Shown here: piece by piece, positions 1 to 24,000 of the stretch
Numbering within the stretch: the first letter of the stretch is position 1
How the letters are laid out: every line of letters starts with the position of its first letter
NCBI GenBank assembly: GCA_048941015.1
Contig: JBHLNZ010000021.1
Location: forward strand, 8,263-32,262
Length of the DNA stretch: 24,000 bases
Reading direction: 5' to 3'
From: Promethearchaeota archaeon
GTDB taxonomy: Archaea > Asgardarchaeota > Lokiarchaeia > Sigyniarchaeales > SOKP01
Position numbers and translations under genes: made by a program
Notes under the pieces: model-generated
Seen by the model: the letters and a program-made list of their open reading frames with translations, nothing else
Database searches by the model: none
Told to the model about the DNA's origin: nothing

Positions 1-561
1 CCAAATATTTCGTTAATTGTTATGATCCTTGATACGTTTTACTTTTCCGAATTTTTAACAATAGAAAAAAGTTATGGATTAAATGCTACTGTCTTTGATT
101 TTTACTTTGAAGTTTTTATTGTTGCAAATAGTAGCGAAAATTCTGGTGAGATAGATCTTTCTTATAATGATCATTGGTATGCCGTCTTTATCAATATCGA
201 TGATAATATGAATACATCTCAAGTAGAATTTAGAGTAAATTTTGATGTGTATGAGGAAAAATATGTTTACGTGAATCCTATATCAATCATTTACTTGATT
301 TATGGAGTGGGTGTTTCATTAGTTATCATAGCTTTGGTTATTAGGGCTATTAGAAAGAGAAAAATATTAAACAAACCTATTCCAGTTGTTCCGTATCCTT
401 ACATGACTAAAGAGGAGACTATTCCAAAAAATTCTTATCTTAAACAAATAGAATTACAGAAAGTAGAGAGTGAACTGCCATTAGCTAAGTATTGTCCATA
501 TTGTGGAGAATATCTTGATCGAGACTCTATTTTCTGCCATCAATGTGGAAATAAAGTATAA
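1..561 (+). CDS. Membrane protein with C-terminal zinc-ribbon (5' partial, open at the window edge)
   Basis: The frame is open from nt 1 (PNISLIV precedes the listed M at 22). There is one strong TM helix (ISIIYLIYGVGVSLVIIALVI) followed by basic RAIRKRK. The C-terminus has CPYCG-x12-CHQCG, a 4-Cys zinc ribbon. The N-terminal part carries N-x-S/T sequons, consistent with an extracellular domain. Confidence 0.5.
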   Translation, partial: PNISLIVMILDTFYFSEFLTIEKSYGLNATVFDFYFEVFIVANSSENSGEIDLSYNDHWYAVFINIDDNMNTSQVEFRVNFDVYEEKYVYVNPISIIYLIYGVGVSLVIIALVIRAIRKRKILNKPIPVVPYPYMTKEETIPKNSYLKQIELQKVESELPLAKYCPYCGEYLDRDSIFCHQCGNKV

Positions 562-620
562 TAATTATTATTAAAATTAAAAAGAAAAAGTTCAAAAAGA
601 AAGAAGAAAAGTGAGAGAAA

Positions 621-836
621 GTGGATTTAGACATTGATTATGAGAGAAATGGGGCGGAATTCGACGTAGATGCAGATATCGACGTTGATCTCGATGCAGG
701 GGTAGATGTAGATGATAAGTTTGATATGAGTCTAGAAGCTGAAATTGAAATAGATGTCGATACAGATATAAATATCGATTCTAAAGTCGGGAAGGATTCG
801 CAAGAAATTGTTATTGCCACTACCCCTGCAACTTAA
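621..836 (+). CDS. Small, highly acidic Asp-rich protein (71 aa, GTG start), hypothetical
   Basis: The ORF begins at GTG 621, right after an in-frame TGA at 612. It has an alternating Asp-hydrophobic pattern (DVDADIDVDLDAGVDVDD ... EIEIDVDTDINID). It lies on the same strand as, and 50 nt upstream of, the NfeD-like gene. The antisense ORF 638-820 is the Ser/Thr/Ile mirror image of this repeat. Confidence 0.4.
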   Translation: MDLDIDYERNGAEFDVDADIDVDLDAGVDVDDKFDMSLEAEIEIDVDTDINIDSKVGKDSQEIVIATTPAT

Positions 837-4991: not shown

Positions 4992-5064
4992 GCCTCTGTT
5001 GCTTAGCAGGTAGAGCGTTGCCTTGGTAAGGCAAAGGTCGGGGGTTCAAATCCCCCCAGGGGCT
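4992..5064 (+). tRNA. tRNA-Thr(GGU): tRNA-Thr (anticodon GGU), intron-less, no encoded CCA
   Basis: Hand-folded cloverleaf. Acceptor GCCTCTG/CAGGGGC, D arm GCTT-AGCAGGTA-GAGC, anticodon arm TTGCC-TTGGTAA-GGCAA, variable AGGTC, T arm GGGGG-TTCAAAT-CCCCC, discriminator T. Confidence 0.9.
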
Positions 5065-5089: not shown

Positions 5090-5222
5090 GCCGGTGTGGC
5101 TTAGTTGGTTATAAAGTCTATTTGAAATTAGACTTAATAGGCACCAGACTCATAATCCATCTGAAAAATTGGGTCAGAAAGATGAACTCTGGAGGTCGTG
5201 GGCTCATATCCCACCACCGGCA
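5090..5222 (+). tRNA. tRNA-Met/Ile2(CAU): tRNA with CAU anticodon (elongator Met or Ile2) interrupted by two introns
   Basis: Acceptor GCCGGTG/CACCGGC. The D stem GCTT...AAG|C is split by a ~25-nt insert (about 5117-5141) containing the hairpin GTCTA-N8-TAGAC. The anticodon arm CCAGA-CTCATAA-TCTGG is split by a ~32-nt insert (about 5156-5187) at or next to the canonical 37/38 site. T arm GTGGG-CTCATAT-CCCAC, discriminator A. Removing 57 nt gives a 76-nt cloverleaf. A G1-C72 pair and no GGG/CCC in the anticodon stem argue against an initiator. Confidence 0.65.
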
Positions 5223-11779: not shown

Positions 11780-12643
11780 TTGAGAATATATATGGGTACT
11801 CAAGTTTTTCTTATAAATCCAGATGGAACCACAACTGAAATAAAATCTGAAGGGTCAATTAAAGATGTTTTAAAAACTGAAGATTGCTATGTTCTAGTTT
11901 CTGATGATATTAGGAAGGTATATCTATGGAAAGGATTGGAGAGCAATGTGAGATCAAAGTTTATTGGTGCCAAAAGGAGCCAAGAAATACGTGGACAAGT
12001 CGGTATGCATTATGCAGTTGTTCCCCAGGATGAAGGGGATGAAGAAGCTGAATTTTTAAAATTAATAGGCGGGAAGACAGAAGGAGGTATAGCTAAAGAA
12101 ATAAAAGCAGAACAAGCGTCTGTTGCTAAACCTGCCCCATCAGTTCACCCACTGAGGGAAAAGGATACTTTTGGAGCTCCAAAGCCAGCCCAAGGTATGA
12201 ATATTGCTGGAAGTAGAGATCGTATTGCTCAAAATACAGGCCCCTTATATAGAGGACAAGAATCTATGTCTATGCTCATGGAGGACGAGGTTAAAATAAA
12301 TTTTGAACAAATAATGCAAAAATTGGAAGAAATTAAAATGCCTGATGGATTTGAAAGGGAATTAATAATTATTGGAAATCATGCTTATTCAGTTGTAGAG
12401 AGAGTACAGACCTTCTTAGGAGAGAAACAAGTAACTAAAGAAATATCGAAGGTAGGAGCTGTCCCTGAGGGAATCTTTTTTGCTGAAGATTATTCTCCAA
12501 GAATTTTATCAGAAAATGGTAAAATTCTAGCTATAGAATTCTTAAAACGGACAACTGGACCAAAAGATACTACAGTTGAATTCAAATCTAAAAAAGAAAT
12601 TTTAAAAGATCAAATAAAAACTCAGCTTGAAGGTAAAAAATAG
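11780..12643 (+). CDS. Gelsolin/cofilin-fold domain protein with an uncharacterised C-terminal domain (1DGelX-like architecture); probable start at ATG 11792
   Basis: The N-terminal ~100 aa follow the gelsolin-repeat pattern: DCYVLVSDD-IRKVYLWKGLESNVRSKFIGAKRSQEIRGQ...VVPQDEGDEEAEFLKLIGG (compare gelsolin DxYIL / IYxWxG / xxE...A / EG-E-x-F). A ~60-aa linker of disordered appearance and a ~125-aa domain without a recognised motif follow. Confidence 0.7.
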   Translation: MRIYMGTQVFLINPDGTTTEIKSEGSIKDVLKTEDCYVLVSDDIRKVYLWKGLESNVRSKFIGAKRSQEIRGQVGMHYAVVPQDEGDEEAEFLKLIGGKTEGGIAKEIKAEQASVAKPAPSVHPLREKDTFGAPKPAQGMNIAGSRDRIAQNTGPLYRGQESMSMLMEDEVKINFEQIMQKLEEIKMPDGFERELIIIGNHAYSVVERVQTFLGEKQVTKEISKVGAVPEGIFFAEDYSPRILSENGKILAIEFLKRTTGPKDTTVEFKSKKEILKDQIKTQLEGKK

Positions 12644-12860
12644 TTCCATATTTTAATCCTTCTTTTATTTATTAAGTCAATACATGTTATTAATTCATAT
12701 AGATACATATGAACCACAAATCTTTTCATTATAAAAATAGCTAAACTTTAAAACACCTTAACCTATTAGAGGTATAAATATAAGTTTTTATATCTAAAAC
12801 TTTTATTTAATATTAATTGTAAAAAAAAATGATATTAATTAATAGCTAAGGACGCGTATT

Positions 12861-13250
12861 ATGAGCGATTTAACTCCAGAAGAAGCACATTCATTATCAA
12901 AATTTCTTGGGAATATTACTGAACATACTGAACTGGAGGCTCTTGCCTTAGTGACACGTGATGGTTTACGTCTTGCTTTTTCTTGCATTCCAGATTATGA
13001 AGTCGATCCGGATCTATTTTCAAGTCTAAGTGCTGTAGTAATGCAAAGCGGACAGGATGCTATTGATTCTCTGGGTTATACTCATTTATTGGAAGTAGTT
13101 TTAAGAGGCGCAGATGCTTTTATTATTTTGAGTGCTGCTGGGAGATTCTTCTTAATGGGTGCAAGTAGAAAAATTGAAGATTTAGGTAAAATTGTAACGG
13201 TTTTTAGATATTATGCTGGAGAAATCGGGAAACGCTACCCTCTAACATAA
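12861..13250 (+). CDS. Roadblock/LC7 (MglB-like) domain protein
   Basis: A 129-aa single domain. LEALALVTRDGLRLA, an acidic loop, LLEVVLRGADAFIILSAAGRFFLMG and LGKIV follow the Roadblock/LC7 longin-like pattern. Confidence 0.75.
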   Translation: MSDLTPEEAHSLSKFLGNITEHTELEALALVTRDGLRLAFSCIPDYEVDPDLFSSLSAVVMQSGQDAIDSLGYTHLLEVVLRGADAFIILSAAGRFFLMGASRKIEDLGKIVTVFRYYAGEIGKRYPLT

Positions 13251-13364
13251 GATTTGAATTAAATGCTAATCAATCTGAATTAAGTGATTTTGAAGATATA
13301 ATAATGCTAAAAAATAAATAATACAAATTTTTAAATTGATAATTAAAAAATATAGTGACGTGAC

Positions 13365-15557
13365 ATGAGCGAAATCAAAATTTTTGTTGATGTAAATGAA
13401 GGTACCTCAAATAAAGTTGTTATTTGCCAAGAGAACGCAAACAAGTTAGGACTTTCCGAAGGTGCTTCAGTTGAAGTTGAAAATCCTGATAATAATAAAA
13501 AAGCCACTGCAACTATAGAAATTTCGAATATGGTTTTAGATTTTGCGGGACAGGTTTCAAAGAATGTTGTTGACGAATTGGAATTTGATGGTATTGAATT
13601 AATTATTCGTCCTGTTAGTAGTACTGGTCTAGCAGCTCCTAAATTACAGATACCGAAAGTTCCAACACCCAGACCGATTCCTACAACCCAACCAGGAATT
13701 TCCCAACAATCATCATTAACTCCATTACCCACACCTCCGCCTCAACCTATGCCAACTAGGCCAACACCTCAACCTAAACCGGCACCTACACCACAAGCAA
13801 CACCTATACCTGCTCATCAACCAGTTCCAAAACCTATTCCTCAACCTATGCCTATGCCTACTCCAACACCTCCACCACAGTATACTCCAGCACCTCCAGC
13901 ACCTACACCAGCACCTATCCCTCGAGTTGCTCCAATACCACCACCCCAACCAACGTATGATCAAGCTCCTACACAAGACTATAGTGTATCTTCTGTTCCT
14001 GCAGAACCATACCCTAATAAAATAGATGTCTATATGTTGCAAACTCAAAAGAATGGTATTGTTCTTAAACCCGTTGTTGATGATAATCTTGAAGGAGGAA
14101 GAGTACAAGTGAGTTCTTCCGTTATTCAACAATTAGGACTTGCTCCAGGATTACTAATTGCCTGGGAAGATCCTTTAACTCGTTCTATAGGCTCTGCTAG
14201 AATAGATCAAGCAATGGTTAATCCAGGTGAGATAAGAATGAGTAGAGATACAAAAGAAGATACAAATATCCAAGCTCAACAAATTGTAATTTATTCGACT
14301 GAACCTCCAATTCATAAAGCATCAGAATTAATGCTTGAAGTTCAATCTCAACCAAATTTAATGGGTTATTGTTTAGTTGGGCCTCGTACAATGTATACAC
14401 TATCTATTAAACAAGATGATGTTCTTGCATTTGAGGATGAACTTACAGGGGCTATAGGCGCTGGTAAAGTGGAAATTTCGGATGCCGTTCCACCTAATAG
14501 TATTGTTATCGATAGTGAGATATTAGAAGCATCTGGTATAGGAAGCTTTGAAGTTAAAGTTTCTAAAAATCTCCGTCCTATTATTCCATTACAAAATATT
14601 GCTCTTGGTATTTCTCCAATTTCAGGAGAAAATATGTGGGAAATCATAAGTACTGCTCGACAAAATGTGGATTCGTTAAAAGGATGGTTATCAAATTATA
14701 TCATCTTTAAAGGAATCAAGTTGAGATGGAATGCGGTAAACATAGCATGTTCAATAATCAGAACGGTTCCAGACTTGACTGGGGATGTCTTTGCCCAAAT
14801 TACACCAAATACCGCAATAAATTTAACGCCCACCGGATTAATACCCTTTAATGCAATTCTTATTATTGATATTAGTAGGAGCATGATGGCAAGAGATGTT
14901 TATGTGACTAATATTGCTCCTGCAATAGAAGGAATAAAAGCAGCTATGGAATCTCGAGAAATTCAAGAATTTCTAAAACATTTCAAAGCTGGAATCAATA
15001 TCCCAAGAAGAATTTCAGCAGCTTTTGCAGCGGTTTTGTTTTTAAGTGAAAAAGTTGGGAGAGGTTTTGGTGAAAAGGTCTCAATTATAAGATTTGCAGA
15101 TGAAGCACAAGTATTACCTTTTGGTGGTGGTTTCTATATGGATTCTGCTAGTGGAAAGAAAGGAATTCTTGAAGATGCAGCACGTATGATCGTTGATCGA
15201 ATAGGAAATGCTTATGGACAAGCTACCAATATGGGTCAAGCTATGATTAAAGCTCATCAAGTTTTAGCTGAGTTTGAAAAGATGAGTCCGGATCAGCCAA
15301 CAATGATCGTACTCTTAACGGATGGGATCCCTACGGATGGAGATGATTTCTTCAAATCAGTTAAAGGTTTTGCTGAGAATCCGAATGTGGTCATTTATAT
15401 AGTTGGACTAGGAAATCCTGATGATGAATTAATGATTAGAGCAGCATCGTTATGTGGTGGAGAATACTTTAAACCGGAGGATGCAGGTGAACTATTGATA
15501 TGGTATTCTAAACGAGCAAGAGATCTTACAGTTAAGTTGAAGGCGCATAAAGGTTAA
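13365..15557 (+). CDS. Multidomain protein: Cdc48-N-like barrel, Pro-rich tract, two more Cdc48-N-like barrels (+ beta-clam), C-terminal vWA domain with intact MIDAS
   Basis: vWA lies at aa ~496-715: ILIIDISRSMM (DxSxS), QATNMG (Thr) and IVLLTDGIPTDG (Asp). There are three segments of the pattern xxVxVxxxxxxxLGLxxGxxVxx...G.A.I (aa 5-85, 233-312, 323-402). They are followed by LKGWLSNYIIFKGIKLRW...IIRTVPDLTGDVFAQITPNTAINL, which resembles the Cdc48 domain-2 beta-clam. Confidence 0.8.
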   Translation: MSEIKIFVDVNEGTSNKVVICQENANKLGLSEGASVEVENPDNNKKATATIEISNMVLDFAGQVSKNVVDELEFDGIELIIRPVSSTGLAAPKLQIPKVPTPRPIPTTQPGISQQSSLTPLPTPPPQPMPTRPTPQPKPAPTPQATPIPAHQPVPKPIPQPMPMPTPTPPPQYTPAPPAPTPAPIPRVAPIPPPQPTYDQAPTQDYSVSSVPAEPYPNKIDVYMLQTQKNGIVLKPVVDDNLEGGRVQVSSSVIQQLGLAPGLLIAWEDPLTRSIGSARIDQAMVNPGEIRMSRDTKEDTNIQAQQIVIYSTEPPIHKASELMLEVQSQPNLMGYCLVGPRTMYTLSIKQDDVLAFEDELTGAIGAGKVEISDAVPPNSIVIDSEILEASGIGSFEVKVSKNLRPIIPLQNIALGISPISGENMWEIISTARQNVDSLKGWLSNYIIFKGIKLRWNAVNIACSIIRTVPDLTGDVFAQITPNTAINLTPTGLIPFNAILIIDISRSMMARDVYVTNIAPAIEGIKAAMESREIQEFLKHFKAGINIPRRISAAFAAVLFLSEKVGRGFGEKVSIIRFADEAQVLPFGGGFYMDSASGKKGILEDAARMIVDRIGNAYGQATNMGQAMIKAHQVLAEFEKMSPDQPTMIVLLTDGIPTDGDDFFKSVKGFAENPNVVIYIVGLGNPDDELMIRAASLCGGEYFKPEDAGELLIWYSKRARDLTVKLKAHKG
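13635..14015 (+). other. Proline-rich low-complexity tract (aa ~91-217) inside the vWA protein
   Basis: The stretch reads PKVPTPRPIPTTQP...PTPPPQPMPTRPTPQPKPAPTPQATPIPAHQPVPKPIPQPMPMPTPTPPPQYTPAPPAPTPAPIPRVAPIPPPQPTY. It forms a local GC-rich island (CCA/CCT codons) that generates the spurious Trp/Arg-rich antisense ORFs 13343-13732 and 13725-14132. Confidence 0.85.
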
Positions 15558-15687: not shown

Positions 15688-16098
15688 ATGAAATCAATAT
15701 TACATCATGCTCATCTTTTTGCGTCTAATCTTGATGAGAGTATCAGATTTTACCAACAAATGTTTGGAGCAGAAATTCTTTTTGATCTAGAGTTAGCAGG
15801 GGCTAGAAATGTGATGATTGCTATTGGTCCTTCAAAAATTAACTTCTACGACCAACCTCCTAGAGACAATGGTAAGGGGGCGGTCCACCATCTCGGGATC
15901 GAAACAGACGATTTAGAAGAACTCGTTGAACATATGAAAAGTAAGGGATATCAATTCAGGAAATCAATTAAACATTTAGGTGTTTTGAAGTATACTATAG
16001 CAGAAGCACCAGATCACGTACTTCTAGAACTTTTTGAAGTTGTTAAAGAAAAACTCCCTGAAGATCAATATAAATTGATCTCTAACTTTAAAACTTAA
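15688..16098 (+). CDS. VOC-family (glyoxalase / bleomycin-resistance / dioxygenase fold) protein
   Basis: The motifs HHAHLFASNLDESIRFYQQMFGAE and VHHLGIETDDLEELVEHMKSKGYQF are typical paired beta-alpha-beta-beta-beta modules with metal-ligand His/Glu. Confidence 0.8.
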   Translation: MKSILHHAHLFASNLDESIRFYQQMFGAEILFDLELAGARNVMIAIGPSKINFYDQPPRDNGKGAVHHLGIETDDLEELVEHMKSKGYQFRKSIKHLGVLKYTIAEAPDHVLLELFEVVKEKLPEDQYKLISNFKT

Positions 16099-16248
16099 AG
16101 TTATTTTAAATTAAATCGATTTACATAAATAACTCAAATTAGTTTTTAATTTTTTTATTGATTGCTTTTAGAAGAATATTGTTTATATAAAATTTTTATA
16201 CTTAAATTTTGATAATAATTATAAGTAAAACTAACAAATTTTATTACT

Positions 16249-16650
16249 ATGAAGGAAGTAAAAGTACTATCGATAGACGATCGTGGCAGGATCGTAATTC
16301 CTCAAATAATAAGAAAATCTCTCGGTCTAACCACAAACTCTCAATTAATAATGGTAAGCGATTCAGAAACAAAAGAAATAAAAATCACTCCTATAGGATT
16401 AGGTGGAGAGAAAATTCCAATTAAATTAAGAATTACTATGAAAGATATACCGGGAGCTCTAGCTAAACTTGCGACAACTTTCGGAGAGCATGGTCTAAGT
16501 ATGATGTATAGTGAAGCTGTAATAGTAGAGAAGGATAAGAAAGCTGTATGGACTGTTATTTCTGAAAGCCCCAGCAATTTAAATGAATTAAAAGAAACTT
16601 TAAAAGAGAAGGGAGAAGCAATAGAAGTTGAAGTTTTACCTTTAGAATAG
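16249..16650 (+). CDS. AbrB/SpoVT-type DNA-binding domain fused to an ACT domain (putative ligand-responsive regulator)
   Basis: The N-terminus SIDDRGRIVIPQIIRKSLGL is the swapped-hairpin AbrB/SpoVT signature. The C-terminus LRITMKDIPGALAKLATTFGEHGLSM...AVWTVISE follows the ACT pattern. Confidence 0.65.
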   Translation: MKEVKVLSIDDRGRIVIPQIIRKSLGLTTNSQLIMVSDSETKEIKITPIGLGGEKIPIKLRITMKDIPGALAKLATTFGEHGLSMMYSEAVIVEKDKKAVWTVISESPSNLNELKETLKEKGEAIEVEVLPLE

Positions 16651-16682
16651 TATAAAAAAATAATAAAAACAACCGCAATTTA

Positions 16683-17411
16683 ATGGCAAAAAAAAAAAAG
16701 AAGGATAAAGAAAAAGATCCTATTTCAGAATATTCATTAGACAGTACATTAAAATCCTCGAAAAAAACCAAAACAGATTTACAGGGATTATTAAGAGGAT
16801 TTTCTGAAGAGAAAGGATTTGGAGCACCGAAAGAAGAAGAAAGAATAAAGCCCCAATTATCATATGAGAGTAAGAAACAAATTGCTGAAGATTATATAAT
16901 GGAAGATATTCCTCTCAGTGAGAGAGAGAAGATAAAAGAAGAAAAAATTAAATTAGAGTCCGTAGAAGAAAAAGTAGTAGAGCTTAAGAAAGATGAAGAA
17001 TCTTCTTCCAAACCAATAAGTACTAAAGAAAAACCTTCTTTTTCGAAGAAAGATGATATCTATTTAAAGTTATCAAATTTTTTTGAAGAACTTTTTGTGG
17101 GTTATAATGAACGTTATGACAGATGGGAGAACTCAGTTTCAGCGTTACTTGCAATTTTAAGAAAAATGAGAAAAATAACTAAAAAAAATACTGAAGATTT
17201 AGTCTCAACAATCAATAATCAATATGAAAAAATACAAAAGAACCTTGAAGAATTTAAAATTAAGCGAGATGAGATAGAAAAAATCTCAGATGTAGATATC
17301 GAAATAATGTCAAGTGAATTTAAAAAAGTTTTGGGGTTATTAGAACTTCAAGTCAAAGAATACCAATTAAAGAAATTAACTGATGAGTATATTCATCAAT
17401 ATAAACTATAA
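16683..17411 (+). CDS. Lys/Glu-rich protein with a C-terminal helical/coiled-coil domain, hypothetical
   Basis: It starts MAKKKKKDKEKD, encoded by an A12 run. Residues ~1-125 are low-complexity K/E/S-rich. Residues ~125-242 look helical with heptad-like spacing. It lies 55 nt upstream of the actin-related gene on the same strand. Confidence 0.5.
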   Translation: MAKKKKKDKEKDPISEYSLDSTLKSSKKTKTDLQGLLRGFSEEKGFGAPKEEERIKPQLSYESKKQIAEDYIMEDIPLSEREKIKEEKIKLESVEEKVVELKKDEESSSKPISTKEKPSFSKKDDIYLKLSNFFEELFVGYNERYDRWENSVSALLAILRKMRKITKKNTEDLVSTINNQYEKIQKNLEEFKIKRDEIEKISDVDIEIMSSEFKKVLGLLELQVKEYQLKKLTDEYIHQYKL

Positions 17412-17466
17412 GCTTCTAGTAATAGGATAAGTTCGGTTTTATAAACAAGTTAATAGAAGTATTATT

Positions 17467-18621
17467 ATGAGTTTCCCCAATAAAGATCAGTTACGTCCTT
17501 TAATTCTTAATATCGGAAGTAATACTTTCAAAATGGGTTGGGCAGGAGATGATTTTCCCGATATTATCGCTCCAAGCATATATGTTGATGTTTCTGATTA
17601 CCTATATACTTCAGATGTAATTGACGGCTTAGAAGAGATTTATATTAATGAGGAAACTCAAAACCATTTGGTTGGACATCAAGCATTAAAATATCAAGAT
17701 ATCTTAAAAATTCACGAATTTAAAAAAGAAAAGAATTATAATTTGCTTACTAAATTTTTTTATTATTATTATAACCAATTAAAAATATCTTTAGAATTAC
17801 AATATAGGCAGCCACTAATTATACTTTTACCTTTTTTTAGTTCAGAATTAGAAAAAACTAAATTACAAGAAATTTTTTTCGAATCCTGTAATTTTCCAGC
17901 TATTTTATTTTTAGATGAAGCTCAAGCTATATTATCTACATTAGACAAGTCTAGTGGAGTGATTATAAATATTGGAGAATCAAATACGTATATCTCTACA
18001 ATATTTCATGGTTTTACGAATATAATGGCCCGAGATCTTTTTCCTGTAGCTGGGAAGGAATTAACAAATTATCTATTAAATTTAATTTTAGCAAGGAAAA
18101 GTTTAGTAAAAAATGTACATGTTGATAAAACTATAGCAAAAGAAGTTAAAGAAAAGTTATCTTTATGTCTTATAGATCCAGATACTGAAAAAAAAAGAGT
18201 TAAAGAAGGTTTAACTAAATATGATCGTACTATAGATCTACCAGATGGTTCTAGTTTAAAAATAAATTTAGAACGTTTTTTATTGGCAGAACCCCTATTT
18301 AATCCAAAACTTATACATATCGATTATATTGGATTAGCGGAAGCAGTATCTAAAGTGGTAAAATCCTGGGAGAGAGAAAACTGGGAAGATTTAGTGTCTA
18401 ATGTTATTTTAGCAGGTGGAGGAAGTTTAATATCTGGTCTTGATCGAAGATTAGAATTGGAATTAAAAAATTTCTTTTCAGAAAGATTAAAGCCAAAAAT
18501 AAAAGTAGTTGCTGCTTCAGGTCGAGAGAATATGGGTTGGATTGGAGCATCAATTCTTTATTCGAAGGGGCAATTACAAAAAGGTTGGGTTAAAAATCCT
18601 AATTTAGAAAATACAATTTAG
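17467..18621 (+). CDS. Actin-related protein (divergent member of the actin/Arp clade)
   Basis: The protein is colinear with eukaryotic actin throughout. [16 protein letters not shown] matches [42 protein letters not shown] matches [46 protein letters not shown] matches [21 protein letters not shown], and [10 protein letters not shown] matches VWIGGSILAS. Confidence 0.9.
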   Translation: [384 protein letters not shown]

Positions 18622-18684
18622 TAAGAAGAAAAATGAGAGAATTATTTAAATAATTATTAAAAAATGAATAGATAATGCTTTAAA

Positions 18685-21273
18685 ATGACTGTTGATTTAG
18701 AGAGAAAAAAAGATTTTTTAGAAAATTTTCAAAAATATGTTATTCAAGGTAGGAAGTTATTACAATCTGCTAATCATAGATGGGCAGATCGATTATTCAC
18801 AGAATTATATTTCGAAATTGAAAAGAATGAATGGCTCGGTATACAAAGAAAGCATCAATTGATAATGATTATCTCTAACTCGTGGTGGATGTATATAAAT
18901 TCGTTAACTAAAGGAATCAATAGTCAAGCAGAAATGGATATTATTCGTTATATTGATGCGTATAAAAGATTTTTTTCTTTCTTATCGAGATTAGATGATT
19001 TCTATTTATTTAATAATTTTGCTACTAATCTTTTGAGATCATTTATTGGTTTTGAAAATTTATCTCAAAAAGGAATCACTAAATTCATTAATTCTTTTTG
19101 TGCTAAAGTTAGTGAAAGAGGAGAGTATCTTAAATTAATTGAATTGCAACTATTGTTGATGTTTTTAAGGAAATCTGTAATCCCTCAAGAGTTTTTTCAT
19201 TTTAGTATGGAGACTCTTGGAAGGACACTTTTTAAATTAGAACCGGCAAAGAGAGCTCTATTTTTATATATATTTTTGGAAAATGTTAATATTAATTATC
19301 AGCTTATTGATGACTCAGATGAATTCATCAAAATTATGAGTAAAATTTTAGTAAATCGAATTCCTAGTTATTTAAAAACTGAATTTAGCAATTTAGGTAG
19401 AATTACTATAAATCAGAGAAATTTTAATTTCATTTTAAATGATTTAGAAGATCTAATCCAATATTTAAATTATATTGGAGAAAATGTCTGGATTGCTGTT
19501 ATTATAAAAAACTTATTTTATAAAATTGAGCGATTTCAGTCGTTCGGAGATGCTGTGACATACATAAGAAAATTTATAGATTATGCAATAGCTAGAAATA
19601 GGTTTGAAATTGCCTTTGAGATATATGATTTTTTAGAAGATATTTTCTTGTCTAAAACTGATTTAGGATACGATAATATTTTAATTGAGTTATGGGTTGA
19701 AGCATGCAAGAAATTCGTAGAAATGAAAGAAAAAAAATATTTATTACAATCTCTAGAAAAATTAAATACTCATTTAAAAACGCCACAGACAAATGCACAA
19801 ATATTTCATTATTTTTATACCTGTAATTTATTATGGAAGTTTAAATCTATGTTCTTTTCTTTGGAACAAAGAGATTTTTGGCGAATGATGTTTTATCGAG
19901 CTCTTTTTGAAGAAAAAGACTATGATTTAGCAAGAAAAATATGTCCATATCTTGATAAGAATATTGGGTCTCAAATAGTTGATCCATCTATATTATTCCG
20001 GGAAAGCCAGGAGTTGCAAAAAGAGATATATTCCTTTAAAAATGAGGAGAATTTTTCTGAATTAGAGACTATGGCTTTTATTATAAAACAAATTATATTT
20101 CGAATAAATTCAGATGGGTTAATTTCATTTAGGATGATTTCTCAAGATAATGCTATGTTAGAAGGTAAAATTTCTGATGAGTTTTGGAATGATGCTCAAA
20201 TAAATGAAATATATTACGATCTTTTTAACCTTAATGAAGTAAAAAAGTTTGATTTTACATTGAAAGAATTTGGAAAATTACTATATATCTTTTTACCAAA
20301 AAAGATAAGGTATTTTTTCAAACATTTTGAGATTAAAGCACTTGATTTTGTACCGGAAATATATTTTATATTGGATCAGATGGCTGTGCCATTTGAAATG
20401 ATTTATGATAATAATTTTTTTTTGTTAAAATATTCTATAGGGTATATAATTGGGGAACCTCCTTTAGGTGGAGTCACTTTTGGATATGAAGACTCCTTAG
20501 AAGAACAAGCGGCTGTGAAAAAAAATAAATTCAATGTGCTAATTATTGAATGCACTAATTCCAAAAATCCTTTAAAATGGAATGAAGAGTCAAAATCAAA
20601 AGAAATTGTTTTTCCTTTCACGGCAGGCATTAATGAATTAAACTATATTATTGAATTTTTTAATAATAGGGAAGAAATAGATCAATTCACCATACTCTCT
20701 GGAGATTACTCTACTAAGGAAAACATTTTATCCAAAATTTTAGAAAGTAATAATCATATAATTCATTTTGTTGGTAATATATTTTATTCAAAATGGAATC
20801 CACAAGATAGCTTTATGATTACAAATGATAATGAAATATTAACATTTAGGAGCATAAATAAGGCAATTGAACAAAATCAATATATAAATGAAACACTTCT
20901 GTTTTTCAATTCTCAGGTGTTCGATGTAAAAGGAGAAAAATTACAGAATGTCTTGAGACCATTTGGAGAAATTGCCCAAAATTTTAATTATAATAAAATA
21001 ACAGGAATAATTTCACGAAATTATCCTATTTTCGATGATGAAACTAAAGAGATTAGTGCTAACTTTTATATACACTTATTCAAGAATTATAGTCAAGGAA
21101 TTGCTCTTTTGAAAGCAAGACAAGAATGCATGGCTAAAAAGATGACTAAACTTGTCGAGGAAAAATTTCAAACTCTAAGTGAAGAAGAAGGAATTATTAA
21201 CATTGATTTAGAGAGCTCTTTAGCAATTTCAAGTTACATACTCTTTGGAAAACCTTGGAAAACTATCATTTGA
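18685..21273 (+). CDS. Large helical-repeat (TPR-like) protein with a C-terminal CHAT (caspase-like, clan CD) domain lacking the canonical His/Cys dyad
   Basis: The C-terminal ~340 aa follow the CHAT profile. LGKLLYIFLPKKIRYFF...ALDFVPEIYFILDQMAVPFEMIY and NHIIHFVGNIFYS match the position of the xHxaxHG motif. NETLLFFNSQVFD matches the position of vvLsaCxs. YPIFDDETKEISANFYIHLFKNYSQGIALLKARQ matches WpvdDxxaxxlmxxFYxxLxxGxsxaeALrxAq. The N-terminal ~520 aa are all-helical and repeat-like. Confidence 0.7.
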   Translation: MTVDLERKKDFLENFQKYVIQGRKLLQSANHRWADRLFTELYFEIEKNEWLGIQRKHQLIMIISNSWWMYINSLTKGINSQAEMDIIRYIDAYKRFFSFLSRLDDFYLFNNFATNLLRSFIGFENLSQKGITKFINSFCAKVSERGEYLKLIELQLLLMFLRKSVIPQEFFHFSMETLGRTLFKLEPAKRALFLYIFLENVNINYQLIDDSDEFIKIMSKILVNRIPSYLKTEFSNLGRITINQRNFNFILNDLEDLIQYLNYIGENVWIAVIIKNLFYKIERFQSFGDAVTYIRKFIDYAIARNRFEIAFEIYDFLEDIFLSKTDLGYDNILIELWVEACKKFVEMKEKKYLLQSLEKLNTHLKTPQTNAQIFHYFYTCNLLWKFKSMFFSLEQRDFWRMMFYRALFEEKDYDLARKICPYLDKNIGSQIVDPSILFRESQELQKEIYSFKNEENFSELETMAFIIKQIIFRINSDGLISFRMISQDNAMLEGKISDEFWNDAQINEIYYDLFNLNEVKKFDFTLKEFGKLLYIFLPKKIRYFFKHFEIKALDFVPEIYFILDQMAVPFEMIYDNNFFLLKYSIGYIIGEPPLGGVTFGYEDSLEEQAAVKKNKFNVLIIECTNSKNPLKWNEESKSKEIVFPFTAGINELNYIIEFFNNREEIDQFTILSGDYSTKENILSKILESNNHIIHFVGNIFYSKWNPQDSFMITNDNEILTFRSINKAIEQNQYINETLLFFNSQVFDVKGEKLQNVLRPFGEIAQNFNYNKITGIISRNYPIFDDETKEISANFYIHLFKNYSQGIALLKARQECMAKKMTKLVEEKFQTLSEEEGIINIDLESSLAISSYILFGKPWKTII

Positions 21274-21357
21274 TATAAAAAATTTGAATATAAATTAATA
21301 AAAATATATTAAAAATGATTATTAGTATTAGAATTTAAAGCAATAGGTTGAATTATC

Positions 21358-21897
21358 TTGTCAGATAGATTATTAGAACTTAGGATAGAAAATCAAAGAT
21401 TAAAAGAACAAGTTCAAGATTTAGAATCGAAAGTATTATCTTTAGTTGGTATGACTCATTTAGAATCCTCTGGGGGCCAGCAAAAGAAAGATATATTAAA
21501 TCAACACATCATTGAGTTGATTTATTCAACAAATACACAATTAAATATAGTTTCTCCAAAAATTGATAAATTTTATGCTACTGAAATCAAGAATTTAGTA
21601 CAAAAAGGGATTCCTGTTTTAATTATTACAAATGATAGAGGCTCCATTCCAAAAGGATACCAAGAAATTTATGATGAAATTAAGTTGTTTCAATCAGTTA
21701 AAATAATAAATAATCCAAATGTTAGATATTTATTAGTTTTTAACTCTAAAGAAGCAATTTATTCTGGAGGTTCATTAGATAAAGAAGAGTTAGAGAAAAC
21801 AATATTAATTATGACAAAAGTAAAAGAATCCACTCAATTAAGAAAAATTGCTGAAATATTTAGTCAAATGTTACCCTCTTTTATGAGAAAAGGATAG
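21358..21897 (+). CDS. Small protein: N-terminal coiled coil + degenerate PLD/TrmB-C-like domain, hypothetical
   Basis: TTG start. The N-terminus LLELRIENQRLKEQVQDLESKVLSL looks like a leucine-zipper. LNIVSPKIDKFYATEIKNLVQKGIPVLIITN ... VRYLLVFNSKEAIYSGGSLD parallels the PLD repeat (i.i.sPy...l..a..rGV.V.il ... HxKxxxxD...a.iGS.N), but the H, K, D and N positions are substituted. Confidence 0.35.
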   Translation: MSDRLLELRIENQRLKEQVQDLESKVLSLVGMTHLESSGGQQKKDILNQHIIELIYSTNTQLNIVSPKIDKFYATEIKNLVQKGIPVLIITNDRGSIPKGYQEIYDEIKLFQSVKIINNPNVRYLLVFNSKEAIYSGGSLDKEELEKTILIMTKVKESTQLRKIAEIFSQMLPSFMRKG

Positions 21898-21980
21898 TAT
21901 TTATATAATTATTTCATGTTTTTAAAATACAATTTAAACTTTTAATTTATTAGTTTATATCTTTTGCTAAAGTTATTGAT

Positions 21981-22118
21981 ATGGTGGAAAATTCTGTAAA
22001 AAAAGAAAAACAAAAGAAGAAGAATAAGATAGAAGAAGATGAGAAAAATACAAATTCTGATCATGATTTTGATTGGGATTGGATCTTTGATAAAGAATGG
22101 TTGAGAACAAAAAAGTAA
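21981..22118 (+). CDS. Possible 45-aa ORF (Lys/Glu-rich N-terminus, acidic-aromatic DHDFDWDWIFDKEW C-terminus) overlapping the methyltransferase start
   Basis: The ORF runs from ATG 21981 to TAA 22116-22118 and is below the ORF-track size cut-off. Its 3' end overlaps the next ORF (ATG 22097) by 22 nt. There is no family assignment, and it could be non-coding. Confidence 0.25.
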   Translation: MVENSVKKEKQKKKNKIEEDEKNTNSDHDFDWDWIFDKEWLRTKK

Positions 22119-24000
22119 TAAATTCGGAAAGAATTACAGAAATTTTTGGCCTAAAGTCTGAAATCTATAATGAAATAATGAAATCTTTTGAAAAAGAACT
22201 CGTTAATGAAAAAGATCTATTTCTAAAGAAATATAATAATTGGAATTTGTTATTTAAAAATATTTTTGGAAGCCAAATTGAAAGAACGCTATTTCTAAAA
22301 CAAACCTATCTTTCTCAGATATTGAAAATTTTAATATTATTTAAATTAAAAAATGATACAGATGTGAATCAATTTTGTGATGCCTATAAATTCTATAACT
22401 TAGAAGAGTATGGTTTAATTGAGTTAAAGTACTTTAATTGGATTGAAATAAATGAACAAATTATAAAAAAGATCTATAATATTTTAAACAAATCGGATTT
22501 CTCTAACGAAGATTTATTTCATGAAGTATACCAAGATATCTTTTCTTCCAAAATACGTCATAAAGCTGGAGAGTTTTATACGATTCCTCTTTTGGTCAAT
22601 AAAATGGTCAATGATGTTTATAAGTTTGGAATGAGAGTATTAGATCCTTCCTGTGGTTCAGGAAGCTTCTTAATACAAATAATAATAAGTATTTTAAAAT
22701 CTCAAATGCCATTTAAGGACAAAATTGATGCGATTAATAATGTTTATGGTTTCGATGTTAATCCTTTAGCAATATTAACAGCGAAATCAAATATTCTTTT
22801 ATTTTTTTTAAGTCAATTTGATCTAAAAAGTAATTCAATCCCTAAAATCAATATATTTTTACTTGATTCTCTTTTTCCTGAAGATTTTGAAAAAAATTCT
22901 TCAATAAATCTGAAAAAATTATATTCGAGTTTTGATCTCGCAATAGGGAACCCTCCTTGGTTAACTTATAAAGATATTAATAATTCGAATTATCAAAAAA
23001 AAATTAGATTATTAGCTGAATCTTTAAATATTAAACCTCGTAGTCAATATATCACCCATATTGAATTAGCATCAATTTTTTTTTATGCTATCCCTTTAAA
23101 ATTTTTAAAAATGGGGGGAGAAATATTATTCGTCATAACGAAAAGTGTATTGAATGGGGATCATTGCTTTAAATTCAGGAGTTTTTCTATATTTGAAAAC
23201 TTAGAAATTTGGGATTTCCCCAAGAATTATTTTTTTAATGTCGATCATATTTGCTTGAAAGCAAAGTTTGTTGGAGCTGGAAAGAGACAGTCAATTTCAT
23301 CCAAATACCCGATTAACTCTAAAATTTTTAATGATAAACTCGAATTACAAAATACTATCAAATATACAAGTATAAAATGTGAAGAGGATGGAGCAAAAAT
23401 TATTCTTCCCGAATATGAAGTTAAAAGATTAAATGAACTTAGAAAAAGTCCTTATAAGGAAAAGTTTCTCCAAGGAGCTACTTTAGTTCCAAGAACTCTC
23501 GTTTTCTTCGAAATAAATGATAAAAATAATCAATATCTAAAAATTTCTTCTGATAGTGATATTCTTTTACGTGCTAAAAAAAAATGGAAGTTCACTTTTA
23601 AAAACGTTGAGATTGAAAATAGATTTAGATTTAAATCCTTTTTAAATATGGATTTAATTCCTTTTCTTATAAAAAAATATCGAAATGTTTTTTTACCTAT
23701 TAATTCTGAATTTGAGTTTAAAATTGAGTTTCTTAAAAAAAATCCAAAAGCATTTATATTCTATAATAAATTGAATGATTTTTATAAAAGAAACAAAAAA
23801 AGCACAAGTAATATCAATACATTATTTGAAAATTTGAACTATTGGAATAAACTTACAAAACAATTTAAGAATAAGAAATATATTGTTGTATATAATGCTA
23901 GTGGTTCAAATTTAAAAGCTGCTGTAATAAATAATGAAAAAAAAAATATTGTTATTGACTCAGAAAATTATTATCTCTCAACAGATTCTTTAAATGAAGC
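22097..24000 (+). CDS. N6-adenine DNA methyltransferase, Eco57I/TaqI-like gamma class (possibly type IIG/IIL or BREX PglX-like); 3' partial, runs off the window
   Basis: This ORF was hand-translated and is not in the supplied track. It is uninterrupted from ATG 22097 (in-frame TAA at 22091) to the window end, more than 634 codons. It has motif X/AdoMet region AGEFYTIPLLVNKMV, motif I VLDPSCGSGSFL and motif IV FDLAIGNPPW. The N-terminal ~150 aa is a helical domain, and the long C-terminal region is consistent with a target-recognition domain. Confidence 0.85.
   Translation, partial: MVENKKVINSERITEIFGLKSEIYNEIMKSFEKELVNEKDLFLKKYNNWNLLFKNIFGSQIERTLFLKQTYLSQILKILILFKLKNDTDVNQFCDAYKFYNLEEYGLIELKYFNWIEINEQIIKKIYNILNKSDFSNEDLFHEVYQDIFSSKIRHKAGEFYTIPLLVNKMVNDVYKFGMRVLDPSCGSGSFLIQIIISILKSQMPFKDKIDAINNVYGFDVNPLAILTAKSNILLFFLSQFDLKSNSIPKINIFLLDSLFPEDFEKNSSINLKKLYSSFDLAIGNPPWLTYKDINNSNYQKKIRLLAESLNIKPRSQYITHIELASIFFYAIPLKFLKMGGEILFVITKSVLNGDHCFKFRSFSIFENLEIWDFPKNYFFNVDHICLKAKFVGAGKRQSISSKYPINSKIFNDKLELQNTIKYTSIKCEEDGAKIILPEYEVKRLNELRKSPYKEKFLQGATLVPRTLVFFEINDKNNQYLKISSDSDILLRAKKKWKFTFKNVEIENRFRFKSFLNMDLIPFLIKKYRNVFLPINSEFEFKIEFLKKNPKAFIFYNKLNDFYKRNKKSTSNINTLFENLNYWNKLTKQFKNKKYIVVYNASGSNLKAAVINNEKKNIVIDSENYYLSTDSLNE

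Follow-up and report, generated by a model that had tools for sequence, protein, structure and literature searches.

In a stretch of 24,000 nucleotides (nt) from a Promethearchaeota archaeon (contig JBHLNZ010000021.1, hereafter the window), the gene of an actin-related protein (ARP) lies immediately upstream of the gene of a large protein with a caspase-like domain that has lost its catalytic residues, which raises the question of why two such proteins should be encoded side by side and what they, with their neighbours, might do. A preliminary description of this DNA had proposed a module of five same-strand genes separated by gaps of 32, 55, 63 and 84 nt, encoding an AbrB-ACT regulator, a protein of 242 amino acids (aa), the ARP, a protein of 862 aa and a degenerate phospholipase D (PLD)-like protein of 179 aa, and the coordinates of the open reading frames (ORFs) agree with it exactly (Table 1). 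Comparison with related genomes upholds a conserved, apparently undescribed module of an ARP and a pseudo-CHAT protein, but redraws its boundaries: the core consists of the 242, ARP, 862 and 179 families, while AbrB-ACT is a frequent accessory gene outside it. The reading we favour, at a probability of roughly 0.55, is that the core proteins form a non-enzymatic ARP-scaffold complex in Loki-type Asgard archaea, most likely with a role in cell architecture or the Lokiactin cytoskeleton.

Since synteny within a single clade is weak evidence, deeper lineages were compared. A phmmer search with the 862 family found 70 representatives among 1.84 billion cluster representatives, of which the weakest dozen or so are ordinary CHAT proteins, and the set includes full-length relatives at 19-45% identity. 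Nine deep lineages (L083, L084, L085, L086, L087, L088, L089, L091 and L092), in which the 862 homologue is 19-35% identical, have loci of 30 to 67% GC (the window is AT-rich, at 25-38%). The ARP gene stands directly upstream of the 862 homologue in all nine, from an 8-nt overlap to a 29-nt gap; the two genes abut or overlap in seven lineages and are otherwise 3-29 nt apart. Promethearchaeum syntrophicum MK-D1 (L083) encodes proteins of 205 aa, the ARP, 853 aa (DSAG12_01480) and 172 aa, with a gap of 3 nt, and a metagenome contig of the Joint Genome Institute (L084) has the same series with proteins of 277, 871 and 171 aa around the ARP and a gap of 5 nt. In L085 (61% GC) AbrB-ACT precedes the 277-aa protein, the ARP, and the 844-aa and 167-aa proteins, and in L086 (67% GC) the ARP gene overlaps the 833-aa gene by 4 nt. 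L088 is an intermediate lineage (35% identity) with the gene order of the window. The core is as elsewhere in L089, where the ARP gene abuts an 843-aa gene and an opposite-strand glycosidase gene precedes the 172-aa gene, in L091 (8-nt overlap) and in L092, where the genes abut. In L087 the ARP gene abuts an 862-aa gene and the 242 homologue lies downstream of the latter, so that the order is shuffled yet the neighbourhood is kept.

As a control, the nine loci were searched for 19 genes of the window. All nine contain the 242, ARP and 862 genes, seven the 179 gene and three AbrB-ACT, whereas the other 14 genes are absent, save four clade neighbours in L088. The five-gene module is thus real and conserved, but its deep core has four members. 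The ARP-862 pair is obligate in the loci compared, and its two genes are probably coupled in translation. The preliminary description had staked its proposal on the conservation of the neighbourhood in related genomes, and this conservation turned out to be strong, extending over about 75 close loci and the nine deep lineages.

The close clade was scanned with one genome per species and an alignment of the closer 862-family members as query, a design that samples the close clade only. Relatives of the 862-aa protein are encoded in 98 stretches, from which 80 loci were kept, 48-84% identical and all Loki-type. By tblastn, the order AbrB-ACT, 242, ARP, 862, 179 is constant wherever the contig permits, and in all 75 loci measured the ARP and 862 genes are separated by 1-45 nt, with a median of 24. 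Across the 80 species-level genomes the module is a single locus per assembly in a stable position, and the divergence of its five genes is mutually correlated (r 0.74-0.84). The earlier observation that no oligo-T run separates the genes also stands, since none of five or more T was found in the four inner gaps (234 nt scanned), but it carries little weight: with an average of one such run in roughly 172 nt of this region, their absence is not significant (P ~0.26). Oligo-T runs bracket the module, upstream at 16143-16156 and downstream at 21919-21923.

The module appears restricted to Loki-type Asgard lineages. Some deposited labels read differently. The module of L076 (DATKTW010000028.1), at 68% identity, was deposited as 'Candidatus Nanopelagicaceae bacterium' and is probably mis-binned; metagenome-assembled genomes (MAGs) labelled Hod-, Hermod-, Thor- and Odin- carry 862 proteins that are 57-84% identical, and a 'Heimdallarchaeota' label sits on a 179-aa homologue (P0260) that is 71% identical. 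Doubtful labels are listed likewise for L003, L022, L029, L032, L045, L049, L054, L056, L061, L063 and L072. A wider spread on the strength of the MAG labels (Hod-, Hermod-, Thor-, Odin- and Heimdall-) was rejected; these labels look unreliable because the 862 homologue of the bona fide Loki MK-D1 is only 25% identical.

The 862-aa protein, for which an identical record exists ('Promethearchaeota archaeon ACFFBW_07550'), had been described as a giant TPR plus pseudo-CHAT protein whose build resembles that of separase. Its AlphaFold2 model shows a solenoid of helices, a middle region and a mixed alpha/beta C-terminal half. In Foldseek the best match of the model is DdvA, a TPR+CHAT anti-sigma factor (E 3e-7), followed by human and yeast separase (E 2e-5 to 1.4e-3) and the TPR domain of LGN/Pins (E ~1e-3), which upholds the separase-like build at the level of the fold. 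The CHAT homology is credible, although formal membership of the window protein is sub-threshold (20.2 bits against Pfam CHAT, PF12770, with a cut-off of 24 bits): nine of 17 family members match this model (best E 4.9e-7), and phmmer from the family reaches bona fide CHAT proteins at E 1e-5 among 1.84 billion proteins. Because the profile of the 862 family matched neither CHAT nor separase sequences in the Protein Data Bank (PDB), the assignment rests on Pfam, phmmer and fold evidence, and no family member matched Peptidase_C50 (PF03568). The TPR label has to be softened, since neither the window protein nor the family members tested matched a Pfam TPR model; the solenoid may be called TPR-like by fold only, through the resemblance of the predicted structure to LGN/Pins.

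Both catalytic residues of the CHAT domain are lost, as the preliminary description had it. In the alignment N698 and Q744 take the places of the catalytic His and Cys, and the replacements vary among distant members (N, Y, S or T for His; Q, R, K or L for Cys). The loss extends to every 862-family member aligned to bona fide CHAT domains, while several non-catalytic CHAT motifs (PFE..D, LKY..G and FG.PW) are kept.

The ARP, previously classed as a true member of the actin/Arp clade, bears out this assignment: it scores 172.3 bits against Pfam Actin (PF00022; cut-off 27) versus 26.3 bits against MreB_Mbl, and its top 60 relatives in the PDB are all actins (E 1e-36 to 1e-41). Judged by these matches, it is an actin-family member closer to actin than to MreB. 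For a comparison of residues, human beta-actin was aligned with 78 orthologues of the ARP and with five distant homologues. G13, G156, G301 and K213 are invariant and D11 is kept in 72 of 78 loci, while G15 is replaced by N, D, K, Q, F, Y, L or R and G158 by S, E, V, M, Y, F, R or K. Furthermore, N replaces D154 in 64 of the 78 loci, E or D stands in place of Q137 and Y, S, T or N in place of H161, and the last, C-terminal helix of actin is missing. The residue set of a functional ATPase (phosphate-1, phosphate-2 and catalytic) is thus not found intact, and the nucleotide site appears from the alignment to be partly degenerate, with varied bulky residues in place of the phosphate-contacting glycines G15 and G158. 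Since these glycines are replaced and the C-terminal helix is missing, a filament role of the ARP should not be assumed.

The 179-aa protein is a pseudo-enzyme with the fold of the PLD superfamily, in line with its earlier description as a degenerate PLD-like protein. PLDc_2 (PF13091) is matched by eight of ten orthologues (best E 2.5e-5), the window protein itself being unmatched, and the AlphaFold2 model, with a predicted local distance difference test score (pLDDT) of 76.5, finds NucT in Foldseek (E 8e-8, template modelling (TM) scores 0.67/0.75), with TrmBL2, Zucchini, FAM83 DUF1669, Nuc and PssA as further matches. The HxK(x)4D motif is gone: no orthologue has His or Lys at the motif position, which reads V-R/K/G-Y/F/M-L-L. 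At the C-terminus stands a short tail, LP[ST]FMR, that was met in the 179 family only; its L, P, F, M and R are invariant and its Ser is Thr in some orthologues.

The 242-aa protein had been taken for a K/E-rich coiled-coil protein and a third partner of the ARP and the 862-aa protein. Its constancy bears out the second half of this claim, the homologues being 29-37% identical in the deep lineages, although the gene in L086 is truncated by the contig end. The first half needs revision, since the K/E-rich part is not conserved; what is conserved is the polybasic N-terminus (MAKKKKKDKEK in the window; family pattern MA(K/R)KKKK) and a C-terminal helical domain of about 115 aa. Between them lies a low-complexity linker whose composition shifts between lineages and is rich in K, E and S in the window. 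Its sequence rather suggests an adaptor that is polybasic and disordered and carries a novel C-terminal domain. No credible relative of this domain was found in Pfam or the PDB; weak matches to PBC, PhaP and SHE3 look like helical noise and were rejected. In several deep lineages (L084 6126-6959 is among those listed) the linker contains poly-proline stretches, with a run of eight prolines in MK-D1 (L083 8184-8801) and (AAPPG)x7 plus PPPP in the GC-rich L086 (1-545), and such runs are absent from the window linker. Poly-proline motifs of this kind recruit profilin in eukaryotes.

The first of the five genes encodes what its sequence indicates to be an AbrB/SpoVT-ACT fusion, with a swapped-hairpin AbrB/MazE N-terminus (MazE_antitoxin, 27 bits; cut-off 24.7) and a C-terminal ACT domain (26.5 bits, marginal against a cut-off of 27); it matches PRK08577 at E 6e-26, yet under the equivalog cut-off. 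Its inclusion in the module fits the close clade, where in 73 loci it precedes the 242 gene at a median distance of 44 nt, but not the deep lineages, where it was found in L085, L088 and L091 and is missing from all five MK-D1-type loci examined.

In the close clade the wider gene order by tblastn is gelsolin-like, Roadblock, VWA, a variable gap, the module and, usually, a DNA methyltransferase. The gelsolin-like/Roadblock/VWA block (11780-15557) precedes the module in most close loci; among the deep lineages only L088 has any of it, with the gelsolin-like and Roadblock genes upstream. Block and module together look like a cytoskeleton-related gene island. The methyltransferase (N6_Mtase, E 5e-11; PADLOC REase_MTase_IIG, E 1e-32; orthologues of ~730 aa with N6_Mtase and Eco57I) was considered as a module member and rejected, because it diverges at a rate poorly correlated with that of the module genes (r 0.22-0.38, whereas the latter reach 0.74-0.84 with one another); it is displaced or absent in several close loci and absent from the deep lineages save L088. 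Its clade-wide synteny with the module is unusual for a gene of restriction-modification type. A 45-aa ORF at 21981-22118 (MVENSVKKEKQKKK...DFDWDWIFDKEW...) overlaps the methyltransferase start in another frame and has tblastn matches at the same place in about ten loci, with a called gene of 49 aa in L002; the deep-locus control led to its rejection as a core member. Between the module and the VWA gene stands a glyoxalase-family gene (15688-16098) that is missing from this place in all of about 80 related loci and looks like a recent insertion in the window genome.

Other neighbours accompany the deep loci. In L083, L089 and L092 a gene for a Hef-type helicase-nuclease and then one for a PHP-type protein of 280-316 aa lie upstream of the 242 homologue, the latter in the place of AbrB-ACT; the PHP domain is a weak Pfam match in L083 and L092, and the L089 protein is 39% identical to that of L083 (flanking genes at L083 4839-8159 and 13195-14400). 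Histone-fold genes lie near two of these three loci. A conserved multipass membrane protein of about 400 aa is encoded after the 172-aa-type gene in L083 and L084, and a pair of HEPN and nucleotidyltransferase genes lies near the module of L088. Farther upstream in the window are a tRNA-Thr (GGT) at 4992-5064 and a second Rfam tRNA match at 5090-5222 (133 nt), presumably intron-containing and not reported by ARAGORN. The product of the ORF at 887-1762, predicted to be a membrane protein and weakly matching YqiJ_N, contains His/Asp-rich hexapeptides (HIDHVD/HIDQFD...) encoded by an 18-nt tandem repeat of about 13 copies (999-1243); this tract could be metal-binding.

Table 1. Features of the window: genes of the module, their parts and the neighbouring genes that serve as context.
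Feature	Nucleotides	Residues	Strand	Basis or remark
AbrB/SpoVT-ACT regulator, 133 aa	16249-16650		+	ORF call
242-aa adaptor protein	16683-17411		+	ORF call
C-terminal helical domain of the 242-aa protein	17052-17408	124-242	+	Conserved, ~115 aa
Divergent actin-related protein (ARP), 384 aa	17467-18621		+	ORF call
862-aa scaffold protein	18685-21273		+	ORF call
Alpha-solenoid of the 862-aa protein	18697-20025	5-447	+	AlphaFold2 model, 22 helices
Middle beta/alpha region of the 862-aa protein		458-546	+	AlphaFold2 model
Pseudo-CHAT caspase-like domain of the 862-aa protein	20272-21174	~530-830	+	CHAT homology
CHAT catalytic His position	20776-20778	N698	+	'IIHYAGH' to 'IIHFVGN' in the alignment
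CHAT catalytic Cys position	20914-20916	Q744	+	'NAC' to 'NSQ' in the alignment
179-aa pseudo-PLD protein	21358-21897		+	ORF call, TTG start
N-terminal coiled-coil helix of the 179-aa protein		2-30	+	
Pseudo-PLD domain of the 179-aa protein		35-171	+	PLDc_2 in orthologues, Foldseek
LPSFMR tail of the 179-aa protein	21871-21888	172-177	+	Family pattern LP[ST]FMR
Gelsolin-like gene, 287 aa	11780-12643		+	Pfam; context only
Roadblock/LC7 gene, 129 aa	12861-13250		+	Pfam; context only
VWA gene, 730 aa	13365-15557		+	Long Pro-rich linker, C-terminal VWA domain; context only
Type IIG-like N6-adenine DNA methyltransferase	22097-24000		+	Runs past the window end; context only

What could such a set of proteins do? 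A non-catalytic assembly is proposed because all three enzyme folds, actin, CHAT and PLD, have lost or altered their catalytic residues throughout the families, yet the proteins are constrained. Coupling of their genes would yield the ARP and the pseudo-CHAT protein in a fixed ratio, and these two would form the core of the complex. The solenoid and the groove of the dead protease may serve as docking sites for peptide ligands, candidates being the LP[ST]FMR tail of the 179-aa protein and the linker of the adaptor, while the polybasic adaptor would anchor the complex on a membrane or on DNA, both being anionic surfaces. The logic of the module would thereby parallel that of eukaryotic ARP-containing complexes. 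A role in the cytoskeleton or cell architecture is favoured because the gelsolin-like and Roadblock genes are neighbours at the level of the clade, including L088. Taken further, and as a tentative extension that we consider possible rather than probable, the module may encode the first prokaryotic ARP holo-complex, in which the ARP would be obligately bound to a separase-like scaffold, the polybasic and in some lineages proline-rich adaptor would recruit it to membranes, the pseudo-PLD protein would tune it, and the whole would nucleate, cap or anchor Lokiactin filaments. If true, this would be an independent, Loki-specific answer to the job of Arp2/3 or dynactin-type complexes, with three pseudo-enzymes recruited into one cytoskeletal machine.

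Several observations weigh against the cytoskeletal complex. In the closed genome of L060 (CP070831.1, 7977-10475) the 862 homologue, an ORF of 832 aa, matches to about residue 784 only and is followed by unrelated genes (Snf7, DHQS and GH57); no 179-aa or methyltransferase gene was found within 8 kb, and the ARP-862 junction is intact. A rearrangement breakpoint appears to lie in the 3' end of this 862 gene. The model of the 862-aa protein is of moderate confidence (pLDDT 75) and its whole-chain TM-scores in Foldseek are low, about 0.2. No clear archaeal promoter signal was seen for any gene of the module in start-anchored upstream-motif profiles over about 75 loci. The ARP, in which D11, G13, G156, K213 and G301 are kept as stated above, may for this reason still bind nucleotide and could polymerise. 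Finally, the target is ambiguous: a DNA methyltransferase follows the module in the window's clade, Hef and then the PHP-type protein are encoded upstream in three of the five MK-D1-type loci, and one of the closest folds to that of the 179-aa protein belongs to TrmBL2, which is an archaeal chromatin protein.

It is this ambiguity that gives the strongest competitor its standing, namely that the same complex acts on DNA or chromatin as an archaeal analogue of nuclear ARP modules, the adaptor binding DNA and the pseudo-PLD, TrmBL2-like protein binding the phosphodiester backbone. Such a role, which we regard as rather unlikely though not negligible, stays in view because of the TrmBL2-like fold (TrmBL2 combines a coiled coil with a PLD-like domain), the methyltransferase conserved downstream in the window's clade and L088, and the Hef and PHP-type genes with histone-fold genes near two of the loci; moreover, polybasic N-termini can bind nucleic acid. 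However, co-evolution with the module is not seen for the methyltransferase, which is found in no deep lineage but L088, Hef and PHP are limited to one clade, the gelsolin-like and Roadblock neighbours in the window's clade point elsewhere, and Pfam detected no DNA-binding domain in any core protein.

An anti-virus or conflict system with the ARP as sensor or effector is improbable. Defence islands often contain TPR-CHAT, PLD and N6-methyltransferase domains; DdvA, which the 862-aa protein matches best in structure, is itself a TPR+CHAT protein that we take to regulate a CRISPR-associated system; and HEPN and nucleotidyltransferase genes accompany the module of L088. In PADLOC-DB 2.0 the 179-aa protein has a weak match to DrmC, a PLD protein (E 0.003), and the methyltransferase matches restriction-modification models, but AbrB-ACT and the 242-aa, ARP and 862-aa proteins are unmatched, and the window contains no CRISPR repeat array. 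With the CHAT dyad and the PLD HxK absent in every member, the usual effector chemistry is gone, and a single stable locus per assembly over 80 species-level genomes, combined with deep divergence at correlated rates, resembles a vertically inherited housekeeping module.

Still less probable is that the 862-aa or the 179-aa protein remains an enzyme by means of non-canonical residues, with the ARP regulating it or serving as its substrate in the manner of a proteolytic switch. In other respects both the CHAT and the PLD fold are well preserved, including the CHAT motifs named above, and P0137, a distant member, carries a Cys immediately before the canonical position. Against this, the family shares no His or Cys at the dyad positions or close to them, the PLD motif position likewise reads R/K/G and L, and the varied replacements of the dyad (N/Y/S/T and Q/R/K/L) argue against a shared alternative chemistry. 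The notion that the adjacency is inherited gene order of no functional meaning is close to refuted: all loci come from one archaeal class, and in the window's clade synteny extends beyond the module, from the gelsolin-like gene through to the methyltransferase, but the nine-locus control rules out plain inherited order, in that the core stays together at 19-25% identity of the 862 protein and GC contents differing by 37 points, with the ARP and 862 genes abutting or overlapping in seven of nine deep lineages and the neighbourhood surviving the shuffling of L087, while the deep loci other than L088 contain none of the remaining window genes save AbrB-ACT in two.

Asgard ARPs have been known as a class since 2015, and to our knowledge they have no assigned partners or functions. 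The claim that no described system couples an actin-family protein to a TPR-CHAT protein remains unchallenged, in that searches for the module, the MK-D1 locus tags, the ARP accessions of Lokiarchaeum ossiferum and CHAT or separase proteins in Asgard archaea yielded no relevant publication in a literature of incomplete coverage. For Lokiarchaeum ossiferum three ARPs have been listed, without partners or functions, and a survey of Asgard genomes placed most eukaryotic-signature genes outside conserved neighbourhoods, naming only the ESCRT and LAMTOR-Rab-DENN clusters. The module thus adds a deeply conserved, tightly coupled partner set for one ARP subfamily, and its presence in the cultured Promethearchaeum syntrophicum MK-D1 makes the function of an archaeal ARP directly testable. 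A CHAT scaffold of caspase fold, the fold class of separase, that stands without catalysis beside an actin-family protein also bears on the origin of large pseudo-enzyme scaffolds.

The closest parallels to the module as a whole are the eukaryotic complexes of Arp2/3, dynactin Arp1/Arp11 and the INO80/SWR1-type Arp4/5/8, in which, as seemingly here, a divergent actin-fold protein works through fixed non-actin partners; some nuclear ARPs also have a partly degenerate nucleotide site. The layout of the adaptor, with a basic region, a disordered linker that is rich in proline in some lineages and a C-terminal domain that may bind a partner, recalls that of nucleation-promoting factors. By contrast, the partners of the Asgard ARP, known here from their genes, are unrelated to those of Arp2/3 and dynactin or to HSA-domain subunits, being a TPR-like/pseudo-CHAT protein, a pseudo-PLD protein and a protein with a new helical domain. 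Among archaea, the crenarchaeal 'arcade' cluster, reportedly described by Ettema, Lindas and Bernander in 2011, joins crenactin to arcadins and thus likewise places an actin-family gene in a conserved cluster with lineage-specific, mostly helical partners. This is a likeness of organisation only, since crenactin is an active filament-forming ATPase, whereas the phosphate-loop glycines of the present ARP are replaced and its partners include two pseudo-enzymes.

The single components have their own parallels. Like separase, which carries a non-catalytic caspase-like domain of its own and is held by a pseudosubstrate (securin), the 862-aa protein joins a large helical solenoid to a C-terminal region of caspase fold; unlike separase, it is roughly half as large, lacks the catalytic His and Cys as well as a C50 match, and is closer to the bacterial DdvA. 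With the TPR-CHAT proteins, DdvA and Csx29 of the type III-E CRISPR 'Craspase', it shares a TPR-like solenoid joined to a CHAT domain, but its family has lost the catalytic dyad and its gene has an actin-family gene as partner; among the Pfam matches and called genes of the window and related loci, in which no dedicated cas search was made, there was no CRISPR-associated domain and none of a sigma factor. The 179-aa protein resembles FAM83 DUF1669 and the C-terminal domain of TrmB/TrmBL2 in having a PLD fold without HxK, and TrmBL2 also in its N-terminal coiled-coil helix, but it lacks the winged-helix DNA-binding domain of TrmBL2 and the kinase-anchoring context of FAM83. Set beside these systems, the module presents an actin-family protein with dedicated partners, as in the eukaryotic and crenarchaeal cases, and with components that are unusual in being pseudo-enzymes.

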